A stretch of 57,183 nt of DNA, filler included, from Perkinsus olseni (lineage: Eukaryota), in NCBI GenBank assembly GCA_013115125.1. It is 7 parts of 7 records of this genome, joined end to end, with 100 filler letters (N's around TTAATTAATTAA, not from the genome) between each part and the next. Parts side by side here need not be neighbours in the genome. Positions count along the whole stretch, not along the records: positions 16,468 to 24,574 come from JABANN010000984.1; 6 more parts are not named here. One strand, written 5' to 3'. Made by a program: the position numbers and the translations under genes. Of this stretch, positions 2,740 through 24,673 are shown piece by piece. The first letter of the stretch is position 1. Every line of letters begins with the position of its first letter. The notes under the pieces were generated by a model. The model was not told the DNA's origin. It did no database searches and was given only the letters and a program-made list of their open reading frames with translations.

Positions 2740-3225
2740 CTAATCGTCCTCAACGGGCACTGAGTCGCCGTAAAGGAATTCCCCGGTCATCACAACCTGA
2801 TAAGGGCAGTCCACTGCTGCTGGGCACTCCACTGCTTGCTTACTTCGCGCTTGCCATTGTCCAGAGTTACGATGAGGTAACCATGCTCGTCCATACCGGA
2901 ATGAACACCAGTGATTATTTTACCATCACCAACACTTACTCGTACCTTTTCCCCAACCATCACCTGAAGACAACAGCGATCTCGGTGCAGATGAGTATGG
3001 TCACGCCATCATGACTACTACTAGAAAAAACGAAAAAAACGAAAAAATGGGGAAATTGAAAAAAGAAGAAAAGGTAAATAAGCAGGAAAAAAGAGAAAAA
3101 TGAGAAAAAAATGAAAATGAGTGGAAAAAGAGGAGAGAACAGAAAGAAATAAGAGGGGCGTGCGAATTTGGGAGACTCCCACGGCGGTCGCGGACCGAGA
3201 AGTAACCAGGCCGCACAACGCCGAG

Positions 3226-13167: not shown

Positions 13168-14868
13168 TTATGCCTCCTCACTGGCTGAGGAGCTCTTATC
13201 ATGCGTGTTATCGATGATGATGTCATGAAGTGCTACCCAGATACACGAGTTACACTTAAAACCACTTCCAAAAGCCATTTGTAATATCCTATCTCCCCTC
13301 TTAATACGACCATCACGCTGAGCCCAAGCCAATTCATACCAAATACTGCTGCTACTAGTGTTACCTCTTTCATATAGTATATTACGGCTTGGGGCGATGT
13401 CATAATGAGATAGTTTGAGATTACTTTGTACAGCATCTAGTACTCCTCTACCACCAGCGTGTATGCACCAATGATCAACACCCTTCCTCAGGTCTGGTAC
13501 GTACATCTTGATACTAGTACTAGTAGCAGTGGTAGTAGTAGTATCATTAGTATTCTTAGACCACCACTTCAAACACTTCACCTTCAACATCGACCATAGT
13601 ACTTTGAATACCTCCCTGTAGGGTAAGATAAGTGGAGCTAGTTTGGTCAAGTTGTGTTGAATAGCCATACCAGCAACTTTTATGATACTCTTCTGTAATC
13701 TAAGAGTAACTATCTTCTTACTACTATCATCAGTTTCTATAATAGATTCAAAACTCTCTTTACCAATGACCTGTGTCCTAATACAATGTAATAGTTTATA
13801 CTTGGCTTTAGCATAATCTTGAGGTAAAGAAGTTAATAAGGCTGCTGATCCACCACAACGGAATAGAGTATTACCCATCAATGGCTCTCTATCATTACCA
13901 CGATAAAAGCATCTTGTAAGTATCTCAGTAGATACAACTAATGCTCGTCCTGGTGATTCACGCAATAAACGTCTAGCGAGATCAATAGATATGATACCAG
14001 CACTACATCCCATACCACTAATATTATATGTTATAACATCACTTCTCATATCCAACTCATTAACAATCATTGCAGCATGAGATGGTACTGGGGCATACAT
14101 AGTACAATTGACGATAACATAATCTATACTCTTCGGATGTATATTAGTAGCCTTCAATAACTTCTTTACTGTAGTAATAATAACCTCTCTAGCCTCCTCT
14201 CGAGTATTAGCAGCTGATGCATCAGCAGGAGTGTTAGTAGTGATAGATTCAACAACAGCAGGAGGGTATGCTGTTGACTTACTGGCAGATGTCCCTGACT
14301 TATGTAATAAACGGCTCATAAAGTGCATAGAGTCCTCAGTATAACAACCTTGAGCTCTCGCTATGGTCAAAATGTCATCATGACTAACCTTCCAAGAGCT
14401 AGGTGGATCAAACTGGGCATGATCAATACACAGTACGTGAGGTTCACCAATGAAGGGAGGGCTACAGTACCGTGAGATAGTTGCCCTCAAAATCAAAATC
14501 AACAGTAACACAGTTATGGTGCAGATGACGGATAATGTATTGACGGGTATCGGGATGTTCTCATGGAGTGGTATGGTGATAGGAAGGAGTAGCATAGTAG
14601 CAAGACCAATAATGATACCAATATAGTTGAATATCCATTGGTAGTGTATGAGAAATACCAGTATATTAGCAACTATACGCATACGTACAGTGCTGCTACT
14701 CCTGTTGGTTTCATCAACCTTTGGGAGGGTATAGTGATCATTATTATGGTCATTATGATGGCACATGATGAAAAAGGGGCCTGCAATGAAGAAATAACCA
14801 ATGGAATCACTGGAAAAGGCGATGATAATCATCACGATGAAAGCAAGCGTGGCTGTTGCAATGAGCAC
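13168..14868 (-). CDS. Plant FAE1-like 3-ketoacyl-CoA synthase (probable delta-9 elongase); true start likely an internal ATG (14832 or 14766)
   Basis: KCS/type III fold motifs YNISGMGCSAG (catalytic Cys), LFRCGGSAALL, HWCIHAGGRGVL (His), GNTSSSSIWYELA (Asn), QMAFGSGFKCNSCIW; N-terminal TM helices; intronless. Confidence 0.92.
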   Translation of the reverse strand: MLIATATLAFIVMIIIAFSSDSIGYFFIAGPFFIMCHHNDHNNDHYTLPKVDETNRSSSTVRMRIVANILVFLIHYQWIFNYIGIIIGLATMLLLPITIPLHENIPIPVNTLSVICTITVLLLILILRATISRYCSPPFIGEPHVLCIDHAQFDPPSSWKVSHDDILTIARAQGCYTEDSMHFMSRLLHKSGTSASKSTAYPPAVVESITTNTPADASAANTREEAREVIITTVKKLLKATNIHPKSIDYVIVNCTMYAPVPSHAAMIVNELDMRSDVITYNISGMGCSAGIISIDLARRLLRESPGRALVVSTEILTRCFYRGNDREPLMGNTLFRCGGSAALLTSLPQDYAKAKYKLLHCIRTQVIGKESFESIIETDDSSKKIVTLRLQKSIIKVAGMAIQHNLTKLAPLILPYREVFKVLWSMLKVKCLKWWSKNTNDTTTTTATSTSIKMYVPDLRKGVDHWCIHAGGRGVLDAVQSNLKLSHYDIAPSRNILYERGNTSSSSIWYELAWAQRDGRIKRGDRILQMAFGSGFKCNSCIWVALHDIIIDNTHDKSSSASEEA

Positions 14869-16293
14869 AACGCACGCATGTACAGTGACGCGACCAGTTC
14901 CGACTACGACGGGACAGTGATAGTAAGCTTGAAAGATTAGTACTACTACAACCAGAAGCTGTGATGATTCTGTTGTTGGATAGAACCTCGCAAGTTGACT
15001 ATTATTATAATAGGCTAAGCAATAGGTAATTACTAAGTGTGATGTACTTGTCGGTTACTGAGTATGCCGTTCCCTAGTATGTGGAGAGTAAACTGCACGC
15101 ACGCGTTAGGACTCGAGGCGGAGAAAGGCTCTTAACGTATGCGTGTCTTAACTGTGTAGGGAGCATAACTAATGGCGAGACAGTGCAACTACTGTAGAAT
15201 GAATGGTGTAAGGATAGCCATTCTCAGCCTCTCACACCTAATAGTAAGGAAGGAAGCTAGGCTCACACTGGGTGCAGCACTCAGAGTGACTTAGCCTTAA
15301 GAGACACAAGGCCTAACTACAGCCTATTACAAGTATATATATAACAGCGACCACCACGAGCAAGTACTAAACCCTTACTCGCCACCAGTACTCACAACTC
15401 AACAACATGATAATGTCTTCTACTACCATGAGCATCATAATGTTGAGTATCATGGCATATCATGTGTATATGGGAACAGCATAATTGTGATCACGATCAC
15501 GATTATCAGTCATAATCTTCCTTTGAGTAGTTACATACCCTGTTGTGATAACTGGTAGAGTGCTTGTAGTAGCAGCATGATGATAATCTTCTTCTTTATA
15601 TCGGTGATGCTGTTTCGAAATCTACAAAACGTTAGAGTGACCACAATCACTGTTATTATTATCAACTCACATAGCTATTGATACAACTCCTTGGACGATG
15701 ATGTTGCTGATGACGATGAAGTGATCCCCGAACATCCCCAGGAGGAACGGCAGCTGTGGTAGTGCATTTATATACGTCCATTACCGCATCTGATGCAGCT
15801 TCTCTCGTTTGATTTGATAATGGTATTCCATCTGGTGAGAGGAATACGGCCACTGTCCTATATGATACTGTTGGCATGATCTTTATACCTATCATCAATC
15901 ATCATCAATCATCATCAACAACAAGTTATATATGAACCATGTACTCACTGTTAGAGTGTGATGGACGAGTAGCCAGAGCATCAGGGTTGATGTTGATGCT
16001 ATTGATGTATATTAAAGCAAGGTAATCCTTATCGAGAGGGAGATCAGGAAGTGCTGTGAAGAAGAAGGAAGAGTTCGACAACAGAGTTGTATAGAGTGCT
16101 TAGTATTACTACCCTCTTCCTCGTCACATGATCCAAACAATAATCGTATTGTGAGAGGTTTCTCCATCTCAACCATGGACTTACGAATAGTCTTCGGTGT
16201 AGCAAAGTTGAATGCAGCAGCAGCAGCACGATGATGATGATGATGAGCATCGTCATCATAATCACTACTCTTACCTACAACAATACTACTCAT

Positions 16294-16367: not shown

Positions 16368-16915
16368 NNNNNNNNNNNNNNNNNNNNNNNNNNNNNNNNN
16401 NNNNNNNNNNNTTAATTAATTAANNNNNNNNNNNNNNNNNNNNNNNNNNNNNNNNNNNNNNNNNNNNCGGCGTCGGCTATTCTACGTTGGCTCCATAGCG
16501 CCGATGTCCCGGCCATGTCGGTGACTATACATTGCGAGCATGGCCATCGTTATGGAGAACCTCGAAGTGAGTGTACGGTCCTTCTCTGTTGTGCTCGTCA
16601 TGTCCAGCTTAGCGTCCATCGCATTATGCGTTTGTCCCGTGAGCGCCCTCTACGTCCTCGAGCTTATACCTGAGGTCACGGTTAACGAGGTCGGGAATGC
16701 GATCCGGATCGACAATTGTTAGCGAGGTGAAATCATCGCTCTGCGCTTCCGTCCAAATGCGATCTGCATTCCTACGTGTGCACTGGTGCGACGACAGTAC
16801 CACTGAGTGGTGTCAACTCATAGAGTGGGGGCGCACGATTCCGATTTGGCAACGCTCAATGGGCACCCCGGGCGTCCTGTCTAGCACGGCTTTTCTCGAG
16901 CGCGATCGAGTCGCA

Positions 16916-17228
16916 TACGGACCGTCCGTAACGGACGCAGTGAGCTCTCGATCTCGACGCTTGATCTATTCGAGTTGGAATTCCGTTATGGAATTCCGTG
17001 AATACATTCACAAAGATGCGGAGCCGAAGACAGCCTGGCATGGAAGTTCCATGAAAGCAGTTCCATGATGGAACTGCTTCCATCTAGACTAATAGTTTCA
17101 CTCAGTGAAACCATTAGTGAAATTCACTGGGCTTCAAGCCCAGAGTTACAAGAGTTCAAGAGTTACAAACTGCAAGTTGCAGTTTGTAACTCTTGAGTTT
17201 CTAGGTGTCACATGGTTTGACACCTAGA
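16916..17228. repeat. Dense array of short, chained inverted repeats, mostly with 1-nt spacers
   Basis: For example TCAAGAGTTACAAACTGCAA-G-TTGCAGTTTGTAACTCTTGA (17156-17196), AAGCAGTTCCAT-G-ATGGAACTGCTT (17055-17079), CTGGGCTT-C-AAGCCCAG (17127-17143). Confidence 0.9.
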
Positions 17229-17858
17229 TAGATGCGGCAAGTGACTCACATGTAGTTATTCCAACAGTTTACCGAGTTTACCGAATCCCCCCGGACTGGA
17301 TTGTCTTCAAGTGCATTGAATGGACTCTGATTCTTTTCACGCACGTGAAAGATTCGAGGCCGATCATAATTCAGGCCGATTCAGCATGAACTCAATGATT
17401 CGATAAGTGTTCCTCCGACAAGGCGACCATTTGAAATGGCCCATTCCGAATAGCCCCTGGTTTGATGCTCCAGTCTCTTTGCCAAGGCCTCCAGATCGTG
17501 CAACTGCTAATGTGGAAGGAACTCGTGTTACCTTCGCTCGCCTTTGTACTGGTGCAACGGTCCGCTCCGCCAAGCTATGTACTTGCGTGCCCCTAAGCTT
17601 GGGTTTTCTCCGGAATTGCAGACTTTCATTAGCCTTTTGATTTTTCCTCGTTCGAGCCTCCTTGACTCGAGGTTCGTTCGTCCCGCAGTGCGGGACCCGC
17701 ACTACTGCTATTACCTTCAAGCTCACCCACGGTTGTGTTGCGCACCTAGTTCGAGTTGTACGGCGACACTAAGGTATACCTCGCTCGCCCGGCATTATCG
17801 ATCACGCACAAATTTACCTTTCCCGCTTTCCTGTCGCATTTAAAGCTCTTCCGTTCAA

Positions 17859-18397
17859 ATGCGTCTCGGTATCGCCGCCATCGCCGTGTTCTCTGCTGTT
17901 GTTATCAGTCCCACTGAGGGGTCCTTCATCAAGAGGAGAGGCACCTGGAAGGACAAGGATGCACTCGCGGGTGTAATCGCCACGGGTGAAGTGGAGGAGA
18001 AAAAAAGAATGGGAAATCTAAGGATTCTTATAATGCGGCTAAAGAGCAGGAGAAGAGGGAGGAGCAGGTCAAGCTGAAGAAGTTCGTCACTGATAAATCG
18101 ACGTGGAAGGCCGCAGACTCAGACTGAGTCTGCAGACTCAGTCACTGAGAATCCCGGTGGCGAGTAATTGAGTTCTATAGCTGCTGGGCAATCGCAATTT
18201 ACATGTTTATCAATGATGATCACACGGGTGTTCAATCATCTTTCGAGTTGCGTTGCCCCAGTCAACCCAATTTGACGGTCCTTGTGGGAGCTTATCTGTC
18301 CAATGAGAGTGGATCCCTGCACACTGTGCGCAGAGAAACGCTGTCTAAGCGTTTGTGCCGAAGTGCGGTGCCCGTAAGTGAGACTGCGCCGTACTAA
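17859..18397 (+). pseudogene. Degraded secreted-protein gene (signal peptide, apparent frameshift in an A-run, palindrome disruption)
   Basis: MRLGIAAIAVFSAVVISPTEG signal peptide. After the A-run near 18000 an alternative frame reads KNGKSKDSYNAAKEQEKREEQVKLKKFVTDKSTWKAADSD* and stops inside the palindrome at 18113-18149. Confidence 0.45.
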
Positions 18398-19656
18398 GTG
18401 ATTGATCCCGATGGCCCATCGGCGATGGGCCTTCGGTCTTGCGAAACAACGAGTGACTTTTATCCATGGTTCTTCTCTAGCTCGCAGGCTCTAGCTGATA
18501 TCTTCCTGTATCGCCAGGTTGTTCTCGAAGAATGGAAACAATTGAGATGCAACTGGTCCTGTTGATGCCACTGCGCTCACGCTCGGCCGACACAATCTCG
18601 TATTATCAAGAATCGAGCACTCTTGGCAGAGAGGGGTGGACTGCAAGTCCAGGGGATGTAAATGCTCAAAGGAGCCTAAAGCAAAGTGCTTCATGGTTTC
18701 TGGCACTTTCAGAACTCGCGTTCATAAAAAAAACCCAAAACAAACAAACAGATACTTGGAGCCCGGCGATCCAGCAAGGACACAAACGATAGTGTAAAAT
18801 GTCCTGCGGGGAGGGCGTCTGATCGCGGGAGGTCTCAGGGAGTTCCATTGTAATATAGAGTTGTGACCCAGTGAATTCTTCGGGAGTCTGCGAAATGATC
18901 GGCTATTTTGTTATCTAACCTTGCAGACGTGGCAAGTTTTCTTGCCCTGGGTGGCAAAAAAACTACGAGAGGGATGGCACCTTCGAACCAATTTGAATTG
19001 GAGACGCGATTCCAATTGGACATACCTATTCCGCGAAGGTTATCTCGGTTTTCATGCATTTCGAGCGCTTTCACTAGTCTACTTTGGTCACGCATGGTAC
19101 GACTGGGGCATGGCTGAGTAATGCGTTAACGCTATGAACTTCACAGTTATAGCGAATGTTGTCTCCAACCACCTAAGCCTCAACTGGCGCAGAGAAATTA
19201 GTTTCTGGAGCTTAGTTTCAGGCACTTCTTTTCAGTTTTTTATTACTGGAACTTTATTATAGGATTTGCCGACGCTTGCGATACATACTTCCAGATTACG
19301 CAGAGTATCTCTCAACACCAGGGTGGCTGAAATATTTCAAAGTGAAATATTTCAAGAAAGTTTTTTGGAGTAAAACCCGCTAGGGTTCTACGCGGGTAAA
19401 ATCTCTGGAGGGGGATGCGTCGCTCCGCGATTCGCGCGTAGCCACACAAAAGGAGACAAGCTATAAAGCGAACGCGTCCTTTCATAAGGGAATCATTCAA
19501 GCGGCCGCAGACCTCAGAGAGCGGCTCCCCGCTCGATTTTCCTTGTCCCTATGAGGACTTGAAGGGCCTTGTCCCTTTGGAGCCCTTGTGCTTCGCGGAT
19601 CAGGGATAGATTCTCACTTCCTGAGCCTTCAGTTACCTTTTCTATTCCTCTCTTCC

Positions 19657-20724
19657 ATGTCTTCAGTCGCTAGCGCGTCATCTAATGGTTCAACTGAGGC
19701 TATCTCGGAGGTGATTGGTGTTGTGGTCCCCGATCCCAAGATTCATGAAGATATTCTACAAGGGCTCTTAAATTTCGGTTTTGGTTCACTGCGTTCCCTG
19801 AGTTGTATGTCGGATGTAGCTAAGGACACCTTGGTATCGAAGTTGATTCTCAAGGACCCCCTTAAGGGCTTGGGGGATGGTGTGGTATCCTCTTATGTGG
19901 CGGGTGTCTGCGAAGAGGCCAAGACGCAGCTTGCGTATGCGGCCAGAAGCTCGTCCGGTGTCGAGGGCGCGACACCTTCTTTAACCCCAGCGGTAAGGTC
20001 GACGTCTCGGTCCAAGGATTACGGTGCGAGTATCAAGGCGGTCAACTCGGAGCTCGGCCCGATTCCGGATGAGTGCATGCCTACCCAGCGCATGCTGGAA
20101 GCCCTCCGGGGCTCTCCCTGGACATACGTTGAATTGTCGCGTTTCTTCGTGGAGGACAGCGTCAATGGTAGGCGTGATGGCACTATCCTTGCTGAAAAGG
20201 CCGATGGTACACCCGTGATCATCAAAGCTCCTGAGAAGGAGTCCACTAGCAAGAATATGGTGCGCCAGTATGGCGCACATTGGACCCTGGCCTATCAGTC
20301 GCTGGGCTGGGCCATGCTGATTATTCAGCATGATGCCCAGCAAGGAGAACGCCATAAAGGCGATCTCTCCTTAGCTTCTATTGACGCTCACAGAGCTCGA
20401 ATTTTGAATCTAGCGATTCAATTTAATTGGTTTGCTGCGACGGCGGCAGATAAAGCCGTGCGTCGCAAAATTGAAGCGAGTGCTTCGTTAGGCATCGCCA
20501 GGCTTGGTGATTTTTACTTCAGAGGTGACCTCCTCTCGGAGGTGATACTGTCCGCCCTTGCGGTCTCTTCTCTGCAGGTGCAGACAAGGCCGGACGCGCC
20601 TAAGCGCCCTGGCCCCTCTCCCAAGCAAAGGGGGCAGAAGGGCGTGGCCGGAGGCCCGCGCTATGAGCTCAAGCAGGAAGCCCCTTCAGGCCCCCCCCTG
20701 CCGAAGCAGCAGAAGTCGGGCTGA
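19657..20724 (+). CDS. ORF1, gag-like protein of the YR retrotransposon
   Basis: Intronless ORF immediately 5' of RT; ATG at 19657 follows a pyrimidine tract; helical core (HRARILNLAIQFNWFAATAADKAVRRKI) and basic Pro-rich C-terminus. Gag call is positional. Confidence 0.7.
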   Translation: MSSVASASSNGSTEAISEVIGVVVPDPKIHEDILQGLLNFGFGSLRSLSCMSDVAKDTLVSKLILKDPLKGLGDGVVSSYVAGVCEEAKTQLAYAARSSSGVEGATPSLTPAVRSTSRSKDYGASIKAVNSELGPIPDECMPTQRMLEALRGSPWTYVELSRFFVEDSVNGRRDGTILAEKADGTPVIIKAPEKESTSKNMVRQYGAHWTLAYQSLGWAMLIIQHDAQQGERHKGDLSLASIDAHRARILNLAIQFNWFAATAADKAVRRKIEASASLGIARLGDFYFRGDLLSEVILSALAVSSLQVQTRPDAPKRPGPSPKQRGQKGVAGGPRYELKQEAPSGPPLPKQQKSG

Positions 20725-20739
20725 AGGGGACAACGAATT

Positions 20740-23022
20740 GTGTCTGTGTTTAGTCCAGCGTTTCCGACTGCCGCCTGGCTTTACGTTGAGGGGGAAAGCC
20801 CCGAGGCTCCCTCAGGGAGCCTCCCTGTGGGATATGTTTCTGGCCGCGTAGGTTTATCTCTGTCTGTGCTCACTATGGCGGTCTATTCCCCGGCGGCGCC
20901 AGAGGATCTGCGTTCCTCACTATCCCGGAACGTTCTTTCCCTCTCCTCCTTGCATGATGTAGCGATGTCGGAGCTTGGCTCCTCTACTTTTAAGTCCGGT
21001 TTCGGGCTGGACTTCCCTCCCCCTGGGTCCAGGTATCCTGGGTTGTCCGATACGCAAAAGACGGTTGTAAGAGCTATCGACGAGGTTATCGCTGGCGATC
21101 GCTTGCTTGATCTGGTCCGCGATGCTGGTGATGTGTTTCCGTTGTCGGAAACAGTTCAAGAAACCTTCGATCAGAGGTTTTCCAACGCCGCCGTCAACTT
21201 ACGGTTCTCCTTGTGCAGCCTACTGGGGTGCGAGGATCGTGAAGCGAAGAGCGGTGCCCCGTTCAGAGCACCTCTCTGGCGCGCCTTGGCACTCCTGGTC
21301 GGTGATGAGCAGAGTGATGAATCCATCTATGATATGTTGGACCTTCCTTATCCCGTTGGTATCAACGAGACCATCCCACTGGCCGGCAATCTACCTCCGT
21401 TCTCCTTGTCTGAGGCCAAGCTAGCGAAAGAGCCGGGTGACTTTCGGTCGGCCTTTCGTAATTACGAAAGCGCCGAGTCTATGCCGACGGTGGTGAGAGA
21501 GTATATCTCAGAGGAGCTACAAGCTGGCCGGATGGAGTTGGTTCCAGATGATGAGCTGCAAAGTGTGGTCGTTACTAGGGTTGCAGCGATAGCTAAGTCT
21601 TCGCATACCTCAACCACTCCGTCTTGGAGATTGGTGGAAGATTATCGCCGGTCAGGGGTAAATCGTAAGATTACCCCAGCTTCCTGCCCAGAAAGCTTGT
21701 CCCTGCCATCTTTACGAGATCTAAGGAGAATCCTAGTCACGATCGGCAGGAATGAGGCTACCACCGATTACCTCGGTTTCCAGATGGACTTCCGTAAGGC
21801 CTATCGCCATGTCAGATTCTCCCAGTCGGAGAGATCCTTCCTCTGTGTACGGTGTCCAGCGTTGGACCCTGGCAAATCATCTTCGGTGGTGGTGCGGCAC
21901 ACGGCCTTACCCTTTGGTCTGCGATCCGCCGGGCTTCTGTGGGTCCGGACTGCTTCGTCCTTGGGGCGTATAATCTTTCGCCTCCTGGACAACGGTGAAC
22001 AGCAGCTCCTGGGGTGTCTATATATTGATGATTTTACGCTTTGGATACCCAAAGCGATTTATGACCAGACAGTGTGCCGAATTCTTTTGTTGACCAAGAC
22101 CTTGGGTCTTTGGTTGAGCTGGAATAAGCTGGTTTTGCATGCGGAGAAATGGAAAGTGCTAGGTTTTTGGGTATCGCTCCCCTCTTTACAACTGGGTATT
22201 CCTTCTGACAAATTGACTTCCACCGTGGCCGATTTGCAGCGACTGCTAGAACAACCAGTAGTTAGGCTTTCGGAGATGCGGCGCCTAATTGGGCGCCTGA
22301 CTTGGTTTTCCCAGGTTCTAGTCCTGGTTAAGCCTTTCCTGCAAAGGCTTCACGGAGTTGCCGGGTATATGGAGCGTACAAGGTCCACTGCCAGGGTCGG
22401 CAGGGAACTCCGGTATGATGTTAAGATTTGGCTGGCTGCTCTTGAGAATGCCTCGGCGCCGGTCTATGTTTTCCCGAAAGCCTCGCCGGTGCTACGGCGG
22501 GTCCTGGTCGCGAGTGATGCCTGTATTCGAGGCATTGGAGGCCTGGTTTCTGTCTGCGAGGGGGAGGTTCACACCACGTGGTATTTCCGTCTCTCTTTGG
22601 ATCACATACCGGGTCCACTCCGGCGACTGTTACTGCGTGGCCGCAGCCCTTCTGCTAGGGACATGACAGTCCTGGAGCTTCTGGCCAGCGGTTTGGGGTT
22701 GGTGTTAGCCACCCAGTTGTCGCCTCCCAGTTCCCCTTTGGTATTGTTTACCGACAGTAGTGCGGCCGCTCATTGTTTGCGAAAGTGTTACTCAGCAAAG
22801 AAGCGTATGTCCCTGGTGATGAGGGCGATTGCGATTCATCTCTCCCGAGAAGGACGGGTCTTCGAGAGCCTAGAGGTGTTGAAGTTGTCTAGTGAGGCTA
22901 ATTTGGCGGCTGACTTCCTTAGCCGGTCGGAGAATGGTGACGTTCCGGCCGACTGGCGGCAGGTTGATGCTTTGACCTTGGTAGAGGCGTTCCCTTGGAA
23001 GGAGTTTGTAGGCCGGTCTTAG
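20740..23022 (+). CDS. ORF2, reverse transcriptase + RNase H (first ATG at 20875)
   Basis: RT motifs WRLVEDYRRSGVN, QMDFRKAYRHV, ALPFGLRSA, YIDDF, KVLGFW; RNase H D-E-D-D residues in ASDAC, VLELLA, LFTDSS, NLAADFLSR. Confidence 0.93.
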   Translation: MSVFSPAFPTAAWLYVEGESPEAPSGSLPVGYVSGRVGLSLSVLTMAVYSPAAPEDLRSSLSRNVLSLSSLHDVAMSELGSSTFKSGFGLDFPPPGSRYPGLSDTQKTVVRAIDEVIAGDRLLDLVRDAGDVFPLSETVQETFDQRFSNAAVNLRFSLCSLLGCEDREAKSGAPFRAPLWRALALLVGDEQSDESIYDMLDLPYPVGINETIPLAGNLPPFSLSEAKLAKEPGDFRSAFRNYESAESMPTVVREYISEELQAGRMELVPDDELQSVVVTRVAAIAKSSHTSTTPSWRLVEDYRRSGVNRKITPASCPESLSLPSLRDLRRILVTIGRNEATTDYLGFQMDFRKAYRHVRFSQSERSFLCVRCPALDPGKSSSVVVRHTALPFGLRSAGLLWVRTASSLGRIIFRLLDNGEQQLLGCLYIDDFTLWIPKAIYDQTVCRILLLTKTLGLWLSWNKLVLHAEKWKVLGFWVSLPSLQLGIPSDKLTSTVADLQRLLEQPVVRLSEMRRLIGRLTWFSQVLVLVKPFLQRLHGVAGYMERTRSTARVGRELRYDVKIWLAALENASAPVYVFPKASPVLRRVLVASDACIRGIGGLVSVCEGEVHTTWYFRLSLDHIPGPLRRLLLRGRSPSARDMTVLELLASGLGLVLATQLSPPSSPLVLFTDSSAAAHCLRKCYSAKKRMSLVMRAIAIHLSREGRVFESLEVLKLSSEANLAADFLSRSENGDVPADWRQVDALTLVEAFPWKEFVGRS

Positions 23023-23071
23023 CTCCAACTACTCTGCGTTTAGTCTCCGTTTCCCCGCCCTCGGTTCGCGT

Positions 23072-24304
23072 TTGGTTCAGCGTTTCTCCCGGGGGCTCTA
23101 CTGTCGCAGGGACGGGTTTTTCGGGCACCTCAGGACTTTGCGTGCCTACCTTGCCATGCGGTCCGGCAGGAGGGCATCGGCGACCCGTCACGGAAAGGCG
23201 CCTAGTTGGACACCGATTCGGGGTGTATGGCGCCCCTTGGGGTCTCTGAGGGGCTCAGTGCGTACGGAGCGGCATCCGAGGGCCTCGGTGTCTCGGGTAC
23301 CTAGGGTCTTGTCTATAGACCGGGCTCCTCGAAGTAGGAGGTCGGCATCTGCGCGAAGGCAGGAGTTGCAGGTAGCGGCAGCCGCGACGACACAGGCCCA
23401 GCTGGACGATTTCGTGGGAGAAGCCCTGTCGGTGTCCACGCGCCGTCAGAGGACCTCCGCTTGGAATTCGTATCAGCTGGCGGTGGAAGCTGCCGATATG
23501 AGTGAGGGTGACTTTGGGGTGACTAGTCTTGTGACCTGGGTGCGAGCCATGGCTGTTGGTGACTACGCCTTCTCCACCATCCAGAATTATGTGGGGCATG
23601 TTCGGAGGATGGCGAAGGAGAAAGGTTTACCTATTCTGGATGACCGGGATGAGCGTGTTTTGGAGCTGGCTTTGCGGGCGGGCCGGAAAATTGTTGGAGA
23701 TCCTGGCCCCCGGAAGGCGATAGCCCTGGACAAAGCTCGGGTTCTCGCGGTTGCCGCGAAGCTTAGCCCGCTTGATGCGGATATCCTCCTGGCCGGAGTT
23801 TTGGGAATGTGCCGGTGTTCGGAGCTCTTTGGTTTCCTCGCTGGTCATTTGGCTCCCACGGCAGGCGGAGTTAGTATGCTGGTTGCTATGTCGAAAACGG
23901 ACCAATTCGCGGCCGGTTCGCGCATTTATTTGGGCTGTACTGGTCATCGTAAGAAGAATGCGAATGTTTGCGAGGATGAATGGTGTGTAGCGCATCGTCT
24001 ACTTCGACGTTCGAGACAGGCTGAAGAACCGGATTCCCCTCTTTTCCCTACGGATAAAGTCTCCTTCGCGGAAAGGCTGCGAGCGGCGGTGACTGCGGTG
24101 GTGGGCTGTAGTCCCACGGAAGCGACCACTCATATGATGCGGCGCTCGGGGGCCTTGATTTACCATCGAGGTGGGGTTCCTCTGCTTGAGATTGCCGAGA
24201 TGGGCCGGTGGAAGGACTCTACTTGTCTGCAAGGCTATTTAAGGGCCGCCTTTGACGCGCCTAAGTACTACACTGACTTAACGGCGTCGATCTGGGCACA
24301 ATAG
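23072..24304 (+). CDS. ORF3, tyrosine recombinase (first ATG at 23156)
   Basis: Catalytic set present: R (GMCRCSEL), K (SKTDQ), HxxR (THMMRRSGA), W (MGRWKD), Y (LQGYLR); core-binding-like segment STIQNYVGHVR. Confidence 0.92.
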   Translation: MVQRFSRGLYCRRDGFFGHLRTLRAYLAMRSGRRASATRHGKAPSWTPIRGVWRPLGSLRGSVRTERHPRASVSRVPRVLSIDRAPRSRRSASARRQELQVAAAATTQAQLDDFVGEALSVSTRRQRTSAWNSYQLAVEAADMSEGDFGVTSLVTWVRAMAVGDYAFSTIQNYVGHVRRMAKEKGLPILDDRDERVLELALRAGRKIVGDPGPRKAIALDKARVLAVAAKLSPLDADILLAGVLGMCRCSELFGFLAGHLAPTAGGVSMLVAMSKTDQFAAGSRIYLGCTGHRKKNANVCEDEWCVAHRLLRRSRQAEEPDSPLFPTDKVSFAERLRAAVTAVVGCSPTEATTHMMRRSGALIYHRGGVPLLEIAEMGRWKDSTCLQGYLRAAFDAPKYYTDLTASIWAQ

Positions 24305-24673
24305 TTAAGGCCCGGACAATGCGTGTGGCTATCGTGATTGAGTAACTGTTTCAGAATGATCTCGCTTGAGCAGGCCCTGAGTTGTGATTTGGGGGATAGC
24401 TGGAGGCATTGCCTCCGAGCCTCCGAGCCTCGGAGTCCGAGGTAGACAACCCTCGCTTAGTGAACGAAGTATGGTCGGCGGTGCGGGTGACGGGTCGAGT
24501 TGGGTGGACACTTCACCTTGTCGTTCCTCCCGGCCTTGAGATCAAGGCAGTGTGGCTCGACAACGTGAGTGTCANNNNNNNNNNNNNNNNNNNNNNNNNN
24601 NNNNNNNNNNNNNNNNNNTTAATTAATTAANNNNNNNNNNNNNNNNNNNNNNNNNNNNNNNNNNNNNNNNNNN

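Follow-up and report, generated by a model that had tools for sequence, protein, structure and literature searches.

Candidate splice acceptors precede the open reading frames of an intact Ngaro-type retrotransposon in Perkinsus olseni

Ngaro-type tyrosine-recombinase (YR) retrotransposons have been described with the layout A1-ORFs-B1-A2-B2, in which open reading frames (ORFs) lie between split direct repeats (PMC8547959, PMC3783388; here and throughout, statements on cited papers refer to the accessible parts of these sources), and PAT elements combine split direct repeats with a methylase (PMC7192593). Complementary DNA (cDNA) of DIRS-1 has been observed mostly in linear, single-stranded form (PMC7192593), though a circular cDNA is the standing model, and the expression of the second and third ORFs of YR retrotransposons is not settled in the literature consulted. 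We analyzed a window of 57,183 nucleotides of Perkinsus olseni DNA (assembly GCA_013115125.1), composed of contigs of about 8 kb with N linkers between them, one of which, at 16468-24574, carries a YR retrotransposon. A sequence-only reading had pointed to this element as belonging to a group of hosts with little characterization. In practice this is right, short of two entries: P. marinus is tabulated with DIRS1-like elements, the source being given as ‘GenBank 2010’ (PMC3266345 Table 1), and A-B-A-B elements have been described in Symbiodinium (PMC5890265). The P. marinus listing shares with our element the genus and the YR class, and the accessible text yielded no structure or family description, nor do the accessible parts of the four supplements of PMC3266345 mention Perkinsus. 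Beyond this row, our literature search, which lay outside subscription papers, Repbase and Dfam, turned up no account of a YR family in Perkinsus; as the P. olseni genome paper was likewise outside it, the family could have been catalogued previously.

We find that the element is a real, intact member of the Ngaro type, of a family undescribed in the literature searched. New in this analysis, and absent from the first reading, is evidence that suggests a splice acceptor before each ORF and an intron in the reverse transcriptase (RT). We propose, at a probability of roughly 0.55, that the spliced leader of the host is trans-spliced before each ORF, resolving the element's genes by operon-like processing. 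The coding anatomy on which this proposal builds is as follows:

19657..20724, plus strand: ORF1, 355 residues, Gag-like by position only, helical, without a CCCH finger; 58% identical to FOL47_005492
20875..23022, plus strand: ORF2, 715 residues, with an N-terminal region, RT and RNase H and no methyltransferase (Pfam, profile and residue evidence); 60% identical to FOL47_005491
23156..24304, plus strand: ORF3, 382 residues, tyrosine recombinase (R-K-HxxR-W-Y); 53% identical to FOL47_005490

Measured from stop to stop, the open frames run 19555-20724, 20725-23022 and 23012-24304, all on the plus strand, and the starts above are their first ATGs (19657, 20875 and 23156). ORF1 and ORF2 lie in one frame with a single TGA between them, while ORF3 is in another frame, and the RT/RNase H and YR frames overlap by only 11 bases. 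ORF2 matches the Pfam family RVT_1 above its cut-off (E 3.5e-08) and ORF3 matches Phage_integrase below it (E 7.9e-04). The catalytic residues are in place in the RT (D305 and the YIDD at 383-386), the RNase H (D548/E601/D627/D680) and the YR (R220/K247/H326/R329/W352/Y361), and in alignments with the P. chesapeaki relatives they are invariant in all three RT rows and both YR rows. Furthermore, a 62-sequence profile aligns the RT and RNase H with RT-RNase H structures from caulimovirus and from Ty3 (E 3e-23 and 1.7e-22). Frames, Pfam matches and residue checks thus agree with the initial description of three open ORFs with full catalytic sets. The same holds for its remark that no methyltransferase follows the RNase H: no Pfam match to a Dam-type methyltransferase was found in the ORFs, and ORF2 ends 35 residues past D680, leaving no room for such a domain.

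ORF1 matches no Pfam family, its Atlas matches are Perkinsozoa clusters without names, and it differs from the P. olseni protein FOZ63_033144 at one of 305 shared residues, which identifies the host as P. olseni from the sequence itself. Its predicted model has a predicted local distance difference test score of 66.7 as a whole and 79.6 in the core. Foldseek searches with the whole and core models returned no match at E<=0.001 in PDB or BFVD (best Z 7.8 and 5.3), the resemblance of the N-terminal 100 residues to SAM/HhH domains (Z 7.8) being within the range of chance. A capsid fold of ORF1 may or may not be present, as these model comparisons neither support it nor speak against it.

We then examined the ends of the element and its RNA in the public assembled contigs of four of the 20 listed sequencing runs, the other 16, including all small-share runs, being left out. 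These are X4, a DNA run; X10, RNA on record; X7, taken as RNA by a guess that its two GT..AG joints fit; and X11. The letters of loose ends were displayed for 18 of 68, depth is no strict copy number, and assembled contigs cannot reveal the start, end, strand or level of an RNA. The terminal features are:

19329..19363, no strand: AT-rich palindromic host repeat in the left flank, apparent insertion target (palindromic motifs, X4 contigs)
19364..19544, plus strand: repeat A1, the left terminus, its first base uncertain by about 3 in a six-T run (X4 depth, loose ends)
24502..24574, plus strand: first 73 bases of repeat B1, the rest lying past the end of the contig (loose end before 24502, overlap arithmetic)

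The host repeat holds two GAAATATTTC motifs, and three X4 contigs match the window up to 19363 and then run on with more of the same AT-rich palindromic motif; the element therefore starts in the T run 19361-19366, inside the host repeat, and the 5' start first placed at 19350 moves to about 19361-19364. The body is a single X4 contig (19515-24531) of depth 88.9, close to the 94.6-94.9 of the flank contigs, whereas the contig over 19364-19509 has a depth of 208.6, or 2.2-2.3 times that of the body, and the last bin, which includes the 73 bases of B1 present before the contig end, reaches 164.7. The X4 loose ends comprise 52 letters behind 19544 and 14 before 24502; eight letters are common to both, which gives a 36-base linker, and 14 + 16 letters make 30, exactly the overlap expected between X4 contigs. 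Hence a further copy of A is linked to a further copy of B, and B1 begins at 24502. The layout is A1-ORF1-RT/RNase H-YR-B1-A2-(36 bases)-B2, with B1 and A2 presumably contiguous. Weighing against so simple a picture, depth rises to 304.7 at 19514 and to about 310 per base over B, which suggests that a third, partial A-B copy is likely and that the A-B junction might be that of a solo repeat; the contiguity of A2-B2 with this copy is accordingly something we infer. A repeat search within the contig alone did not find the termini, and the sequence-only reading had called them invisible. The contig does end early, 270 bases 3' of the YR stop as that reading stated, yet the public contigs allow the termini to be deduced, as split direct repeats (a duplicated A and an A-B junction) and not inverted ones; long inverted arms are absent from the contig.

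Based on these features the element is very probably an intact Ngaro-type retrotransposon of P. olseni, in keeping with its original placement. ORF1, RT-RNase H and YR follow one another on one strand, no methyltransferase is present, and A is duplicated with an A-B junction. Of the DIRS1-like features, neither a methyltransferase after the RNase H nor inverted termini with an internal complementary region were found (the right end lying beyond the contig); the PAT-like combination is present in its split direct repeats and absent in its methylase; and the VIPER-like order (Gag-like, YR, RT/RNase H) differs in that YR comes last here. That a DIRS1-like or PAT-like element has simply lost its methyltransferase would agree with the DIRS1-like listing of P. 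marinus and with the split direct repeats of PAT elements (PMC3266345), and RT trees separate these groups poorly (PMC6681497). We consider this highly improbable, given that the methyltransferase is missing here and in 82 of 82 scanned relatives, that the repeats are direct rather than inverted, and that the YR follows the RT/RNase H with just those 11 bases of frame overlap.

The evidence on expression centers on five further features:

19631..19632, plus strand: putative acceptor CAG, 24 bases 5' of the ORF1 ATG, in the most pyrimidine-rich window (X7 contig 29)
20524..20526, plus strand: possible cis donor AG/GT, whose junction with the ORF2 acceptor would fuse ORF1 and ORF2 in frame (gene model FOZ62_031285)
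20850..20851, plus strand: putative acceptor TAG, 23 bases 5' of the ORF2 ATG, with an out-of-place ATG (20834) just upstream (X7 contig 31)
22258..22314, plus strand: 57-base GT-AG intron of some transcripts, removing ORF2 residues 462-480 in frame (X7 joint)
23023..23155, plus strand: pyrimidine-rich spacer with candidate acceptors 112, 75, 46 and 22 bases 5' of the ORF3 ATG (RNA contig ends)

The alignment of X7 contig 29 begins at the AG of 19631, preceded by six unaligned letters, and that of X7 contig 31 at the AG of 20850, preceded by five. The spliced leader of Perkinsus, as known from P. marinus, ends in AAG (PMC9399869); assuming the same leader in P. olseni, it would match the AG and mismatch one base further, as these contigs do. 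AG occurs at 6.4% of positions, so that the start of both foreign-lettered X7 pieces at an AG has a chance of about 0.004 (0.064 squared). At all three ORF-start ATGs the nearest AG is a YAG 18-30 bases upstream, against two of 76 other ATGs (10 in 79,079 by hand, the 18-30 window having been picked after the fact), and the CAG of ORF3 lies 22 bases 5' of its ATG. The two most pyrimidine-rich windows of the element are those of the ORF1 acceptor and of the ORF2-ORF3 spacer. X7 depth in the bins 19449-19719 and 20804-21074 is wholly accounted for by the AG-starting contigs. Both X7 and X10 hold ORF1 and ORF2 pieces, and contigs of these two separate studies end at 23056 and 23057, that is 34-35 bases past the RT stop, a weak hint of a 3' end there. 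X10 covers 13 of 30 bins, all within ORF1-ORF2 and none in the flank or ORF3, and X11 has no cover past the bin 21346-21616.

In light of these observations we posit that the element would be transcribed as an operon-like precursor, that the host leader would join an acceptor 22-24 bases ahead of each ATG, and that 3' end formation would fall just behind the preceding stop, so that three proteins would arise without frameshift, overlap or readthrough. The RNA used as copying template would have to escape both trans- and cis-splicing. Under the model of the class, such full-length unprocessed RNA would be reverse transcribed, the split repeats would allow the ends to be restored as a circle containing a B-A junction, which the YR would recombine into the target, here an AT-rich palindromic repeat. 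In this account the ORF3 acceptor, the identity of the foreign letters, the replication cycle and any present-day mobility are inferred.

Several observations weigh against leader trans-splicing. The foreign letters at 19631 and 20850 are known by count only, from contigs that do not show RNA ends and a run that is RNA by guess; no RNA contig marks the start of ORF3; one NCBI gene model uses the donor at 20524, which likewise ends in AG and preserves the frame; 22 letters of X7 contig 29, behind 20003, lack an explanation; and in L001, a distant metagenome relative, two of the three nearest AGs are AAG, one of them just 1 base before the ATG. The 22 letters at 20003 follow a GTCGAC palindrome in ORF1, and might reflect a splice, a chimera or a fold-back artefact.

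Ordinary cis-splicing could also deliver the downstream ORFs, for example through a Gag-Pol fusion that joins 20524 to 20851, or through several acceptors that share one 5' donor. The 20524->20851 junction keeps the frame and is present in FOZ62_031285, the AG end of the donor exon fits the alignment start at 20850, annotations of sister families show ORF1 fused to the RT, the element is already cis-spliced at 22258-22314, and L001 requires intron removal from ORF1 and ORF2. Against this, some 28-30 upstream-exon letters and a listed joint would be expected (the RT intron joint has a side of 28), while there are 5-6 letters and 20524->20851 is not among the three listed joints. Moreover, separate genes are annotated in P. 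chesapeaki and in the other two named assemblies, and the AG start before ORF1 is left unexplained. The 5' leader contains no GT donor with an AG-ending exon. X7 is without cover over 20438-20849, across this donor, though such gaps prove nothing alone. On balance we regard cis-splicing as unlikely.

Slightly less likely still are internal promoters or reinitiation on a single RNA, with the AG starts being chance or assembly tips. Contigs are silent on RNA starts, the signal is in only two of eight listed X7 pieces, and pyrimidine-rich 5' untranslated regions need not be acceptors; yet both foreign-lettered pieces start exactly at an AG and at near-equal distance from the first ATG, and the upstream ATGs at 19415, 19551 and 20834 would hamper scanning. 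Readthrough of the TGA between ORF1 and ORF2 appears very improbable, even though the two share a frame with one stop and a hairpin covers that stop: shuffled sequences keep the 50 codons from stop to ATG open in 18% of cases, the region shows no folding advantage over its shuffles (z -1.28), and all three family RTs have a Met 36-44 residues ahead of the first conserved motif. Leader trans-splicing before each ORF remains our preferred account.

The RT intron was observed as an X7 joint, 22257>22315, with GT..AG ends and a depth of 10.1, in one contig of one run, and X10 contig 6 spans the site unspliced. The excised segment holds G473, a residue near-invariant in 62 RTs and aligned to the RT thumb helix; an RT product without the thumb helix is probably inactive. 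The intron may be splicing noise.

The three genes have counterparts in P. chesapeaki, FOL47_005492, FOL47_005491 and FOL47_005490, which are adjacent, separate genes for proteins of 354, 718 and 368 residues, and named homologues occur in P. olseni, P. chesapeaki and P. marinus, in agreement with the perkinsid host first assigned. The possibility that the YR might be unlinked from the RT elsewhere is answered by other copies, in which the two are linked. A contaminant origin was considered and rejected on the basis of equal X4 depth in flank and body and of the homologues in three Perkinsus species. An RT profile search gave 3,831 matches at E<=0.001, the top 150 being listed; nine of the ten matches first looked up were named Perkinsus proteins. 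We built a tree of 93 rows, namely the 91 RT proteins, out of 153, whose core is nearly complete, together with P0004/P0005, chosen arbitrarily as root, leaving out 60 partial RT proteins, by an LG+G4 quick search with Shimodaira-Hasegawa-like approximate likelihood ratio test (SH-aLRT) support only. In it the RTs of the family, three in all, group together (SH-aLRT 100), nested in a 34-row clade (SH-aLRT 97) that includes all 12 then-labelled Perkinsus-named rows, from three species. The P. marinus RT Pmar_PMAR003789, 26% identical, is in the same clade, and the P. olseni RT P0058 and a Symbiodinium-labelled cluster lie in sister clades. As no named Ngaro, DIRS1, PAT or VIPER element is in the tree, it shows kinship among the matches and not superfamily membership. 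The RT is 22-24% identical to P0004/P0005, which we take to be Ngaro-looking. A Dam-type methyltransferase was found in none of the 82 RT relatives scanned (152 retrieved), among which were one C5 methylase, several CCCH fingers and several proteins continuing into a YR. Of 91 full RT-RNase H cores, 84 end at most 91 residues from the C-terminus, and six of the other seven run into a YR-like stretch.

L001 has three separate ORFs in the order ORF1, RT-RNase H, YR, lacks long inverted arms, and has ends that overlap by 123 bases, as in a collapsed A-body-B loop or a true circle. Its two top pyrimidine-rich windows lie immediately 5' of the ATGs of ORF3 and ORF2. ORF1 depends on the removal of a 43-base intron (2276-2318) and ORF2 on the removal of another, with a 44-base candidate (~3093-3136) among several, so that a reverse-transcribed element apparently requires frame-restoring introns. 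Its non-coding part holds about 11 tandem copies of a 66-68-base unit (582-1408).

Extending the proposal to these relatives, we tentatively suggest, at somewhat less than even odds, a Perkinsus-centered Ngaro-type lineage built as a eukaryotic operon, in which the host leader and coupled 3' processing would yield separate messages for ORF1, RT and recombinase from one precursor, the copied RNA would escape splicing, and the acceptors, and in L001 obligatory introns, would be inherited. If so, the choice of splicing would set the protein ratios and the copy rate, and the thumb-deleting RT intron would act as a brake.

The designation ‘recently active’ in the sequence-only reading fares less well than its anatomy. 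ORFs and termini are intact, in favor of it, but the body is at single-copy depth in X4 and a cut copy is present in three other named P. olseni assemblies, so that it is partly supported. The cut copy ends after ORF2 residue 162 (window 21360) and differs by 2-3 residues, and an X11 piece that ends at 21361 shows 16 differences plus 28 gap letters over about 1,700 bases. These suggest a low-copy family decaying in some isolates. That the copy is a relic, intact yet immobile, or a domesticated locus is an alternative that concerns activity and not expression, and an unlikely one. It could draw on the body depth equal to that of the flank, on the presence of a full RT on only two contigs, and on the transcripts that lose the RT thumb helix. 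Conversely, all three ORFs and the termini are intact, the two A copies share one 146-base X4 contig, and the cut, peptidase-joined copies fit a decaying mobile family better than a host gene. The cut copy (P0188-P0190, equivalent to window 19807-21360) is annotated as joined to a peptidase A1-like tail, which is either a real chimera or a gene-model artefact.

Elsewhere in the contig, nine of the window's 16 perfect short palindromes (arm at least 8, loop 0-1) lie within 1.4 kb at 17055-18431, the longest there with 20-base arms, against a whole-window expectation of 1.55. Short high-copy repeats occur at 16468-16671 (X4 depth 1243 vs 95) and ~17510-17770 (480-1860 vs 95), and an X11 contig skips 17502-17768, possibly an empty site. 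A 144-base GT..AG intron at 18374-18517, in flank DNA without a long ORF, is spliced in X7 (depth 20.6). An Rfam scan of 16468-24574 gave no match, a search of the window for spliced-leader relics gave 0 matches against 0.13 expected, and none of 34 pattern matches of a viral-contig scan was confirmed. On a neighboring contig, the minus strand of 13168-15054 holds a 628-codon open frame that, from its motifs, is presumably ketoacyl-CoA synthase-like.

An intact, transcribed, low-copy element with defined putative acceptors makes the question of YR-retrotransposon expression testable from existing RNA data. The relatives also open an undescribed radiation of methyltransferase-less YR elements in Perkinsus, a single clade uniting 12 named RTs of three species. 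If trans-splicing is true, a retroelement resolves its own genes through the host leader machinery; if not, the locus is a well-anatomized new Ngaro family. Among known systems, Ngaro elements (four types of Cafeteria burkhardae, PMC8547959; fungal, PMC3783388) share the ORF order, the missing methyltransferase, the A1-[ORFs]-B1A2B2 layout, solo AB repeats and a length of about 5.5-6 kb, and the accessible parts of these papers hold no statement on ORF2/ORF3 expression. The P. olseni element is set apart by its 36-base A-B linker, an acceptor before each ORF and a spliced RT intron. SymbioDIRS of Symbiodinium (PMC5890265), from a sister host lineage, likewise has A-coding-B-A-B repeats and a separate YR ORF, but the Perkinsus element lacks its DNMT domain and falls in another RT clade. 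Kinship is seen in the sister clades, which contain the Symbiodinium-labelled cluster and one C5-methylase-bearing RT.

VIPER/TATE of trypanosomatids (PMC6681497, PMC5814959) are comparable in lacking a methyltransferase, in their A1-B1-A2-B2 repeats with a solo A-B derivative (SIRE) and in a host with leader trans-splicing. VIPER has the order Gag, YR, RT/RH (PMC5814959) as against ORF1, RT/RH, YR here, and trans-splicing of single VIPER ORFs was not found in the accessible parts of these two papers. The literature searched yielded no leader-resolved YR element, the closest precedent, a partial one, being Cer1 of Caenorhabditis elegans (PMC3315495). As proposed here, its full-length RNA skips all splice sites while a subgenomic RNA takes the spliced leader; in contrast to the P. 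olseni element, Cer1 is a long terminal repeat element of the Gypsy group with one 5' trans-splice site, whose Gag and Pol come from unspliced RNA (PMC3315495).

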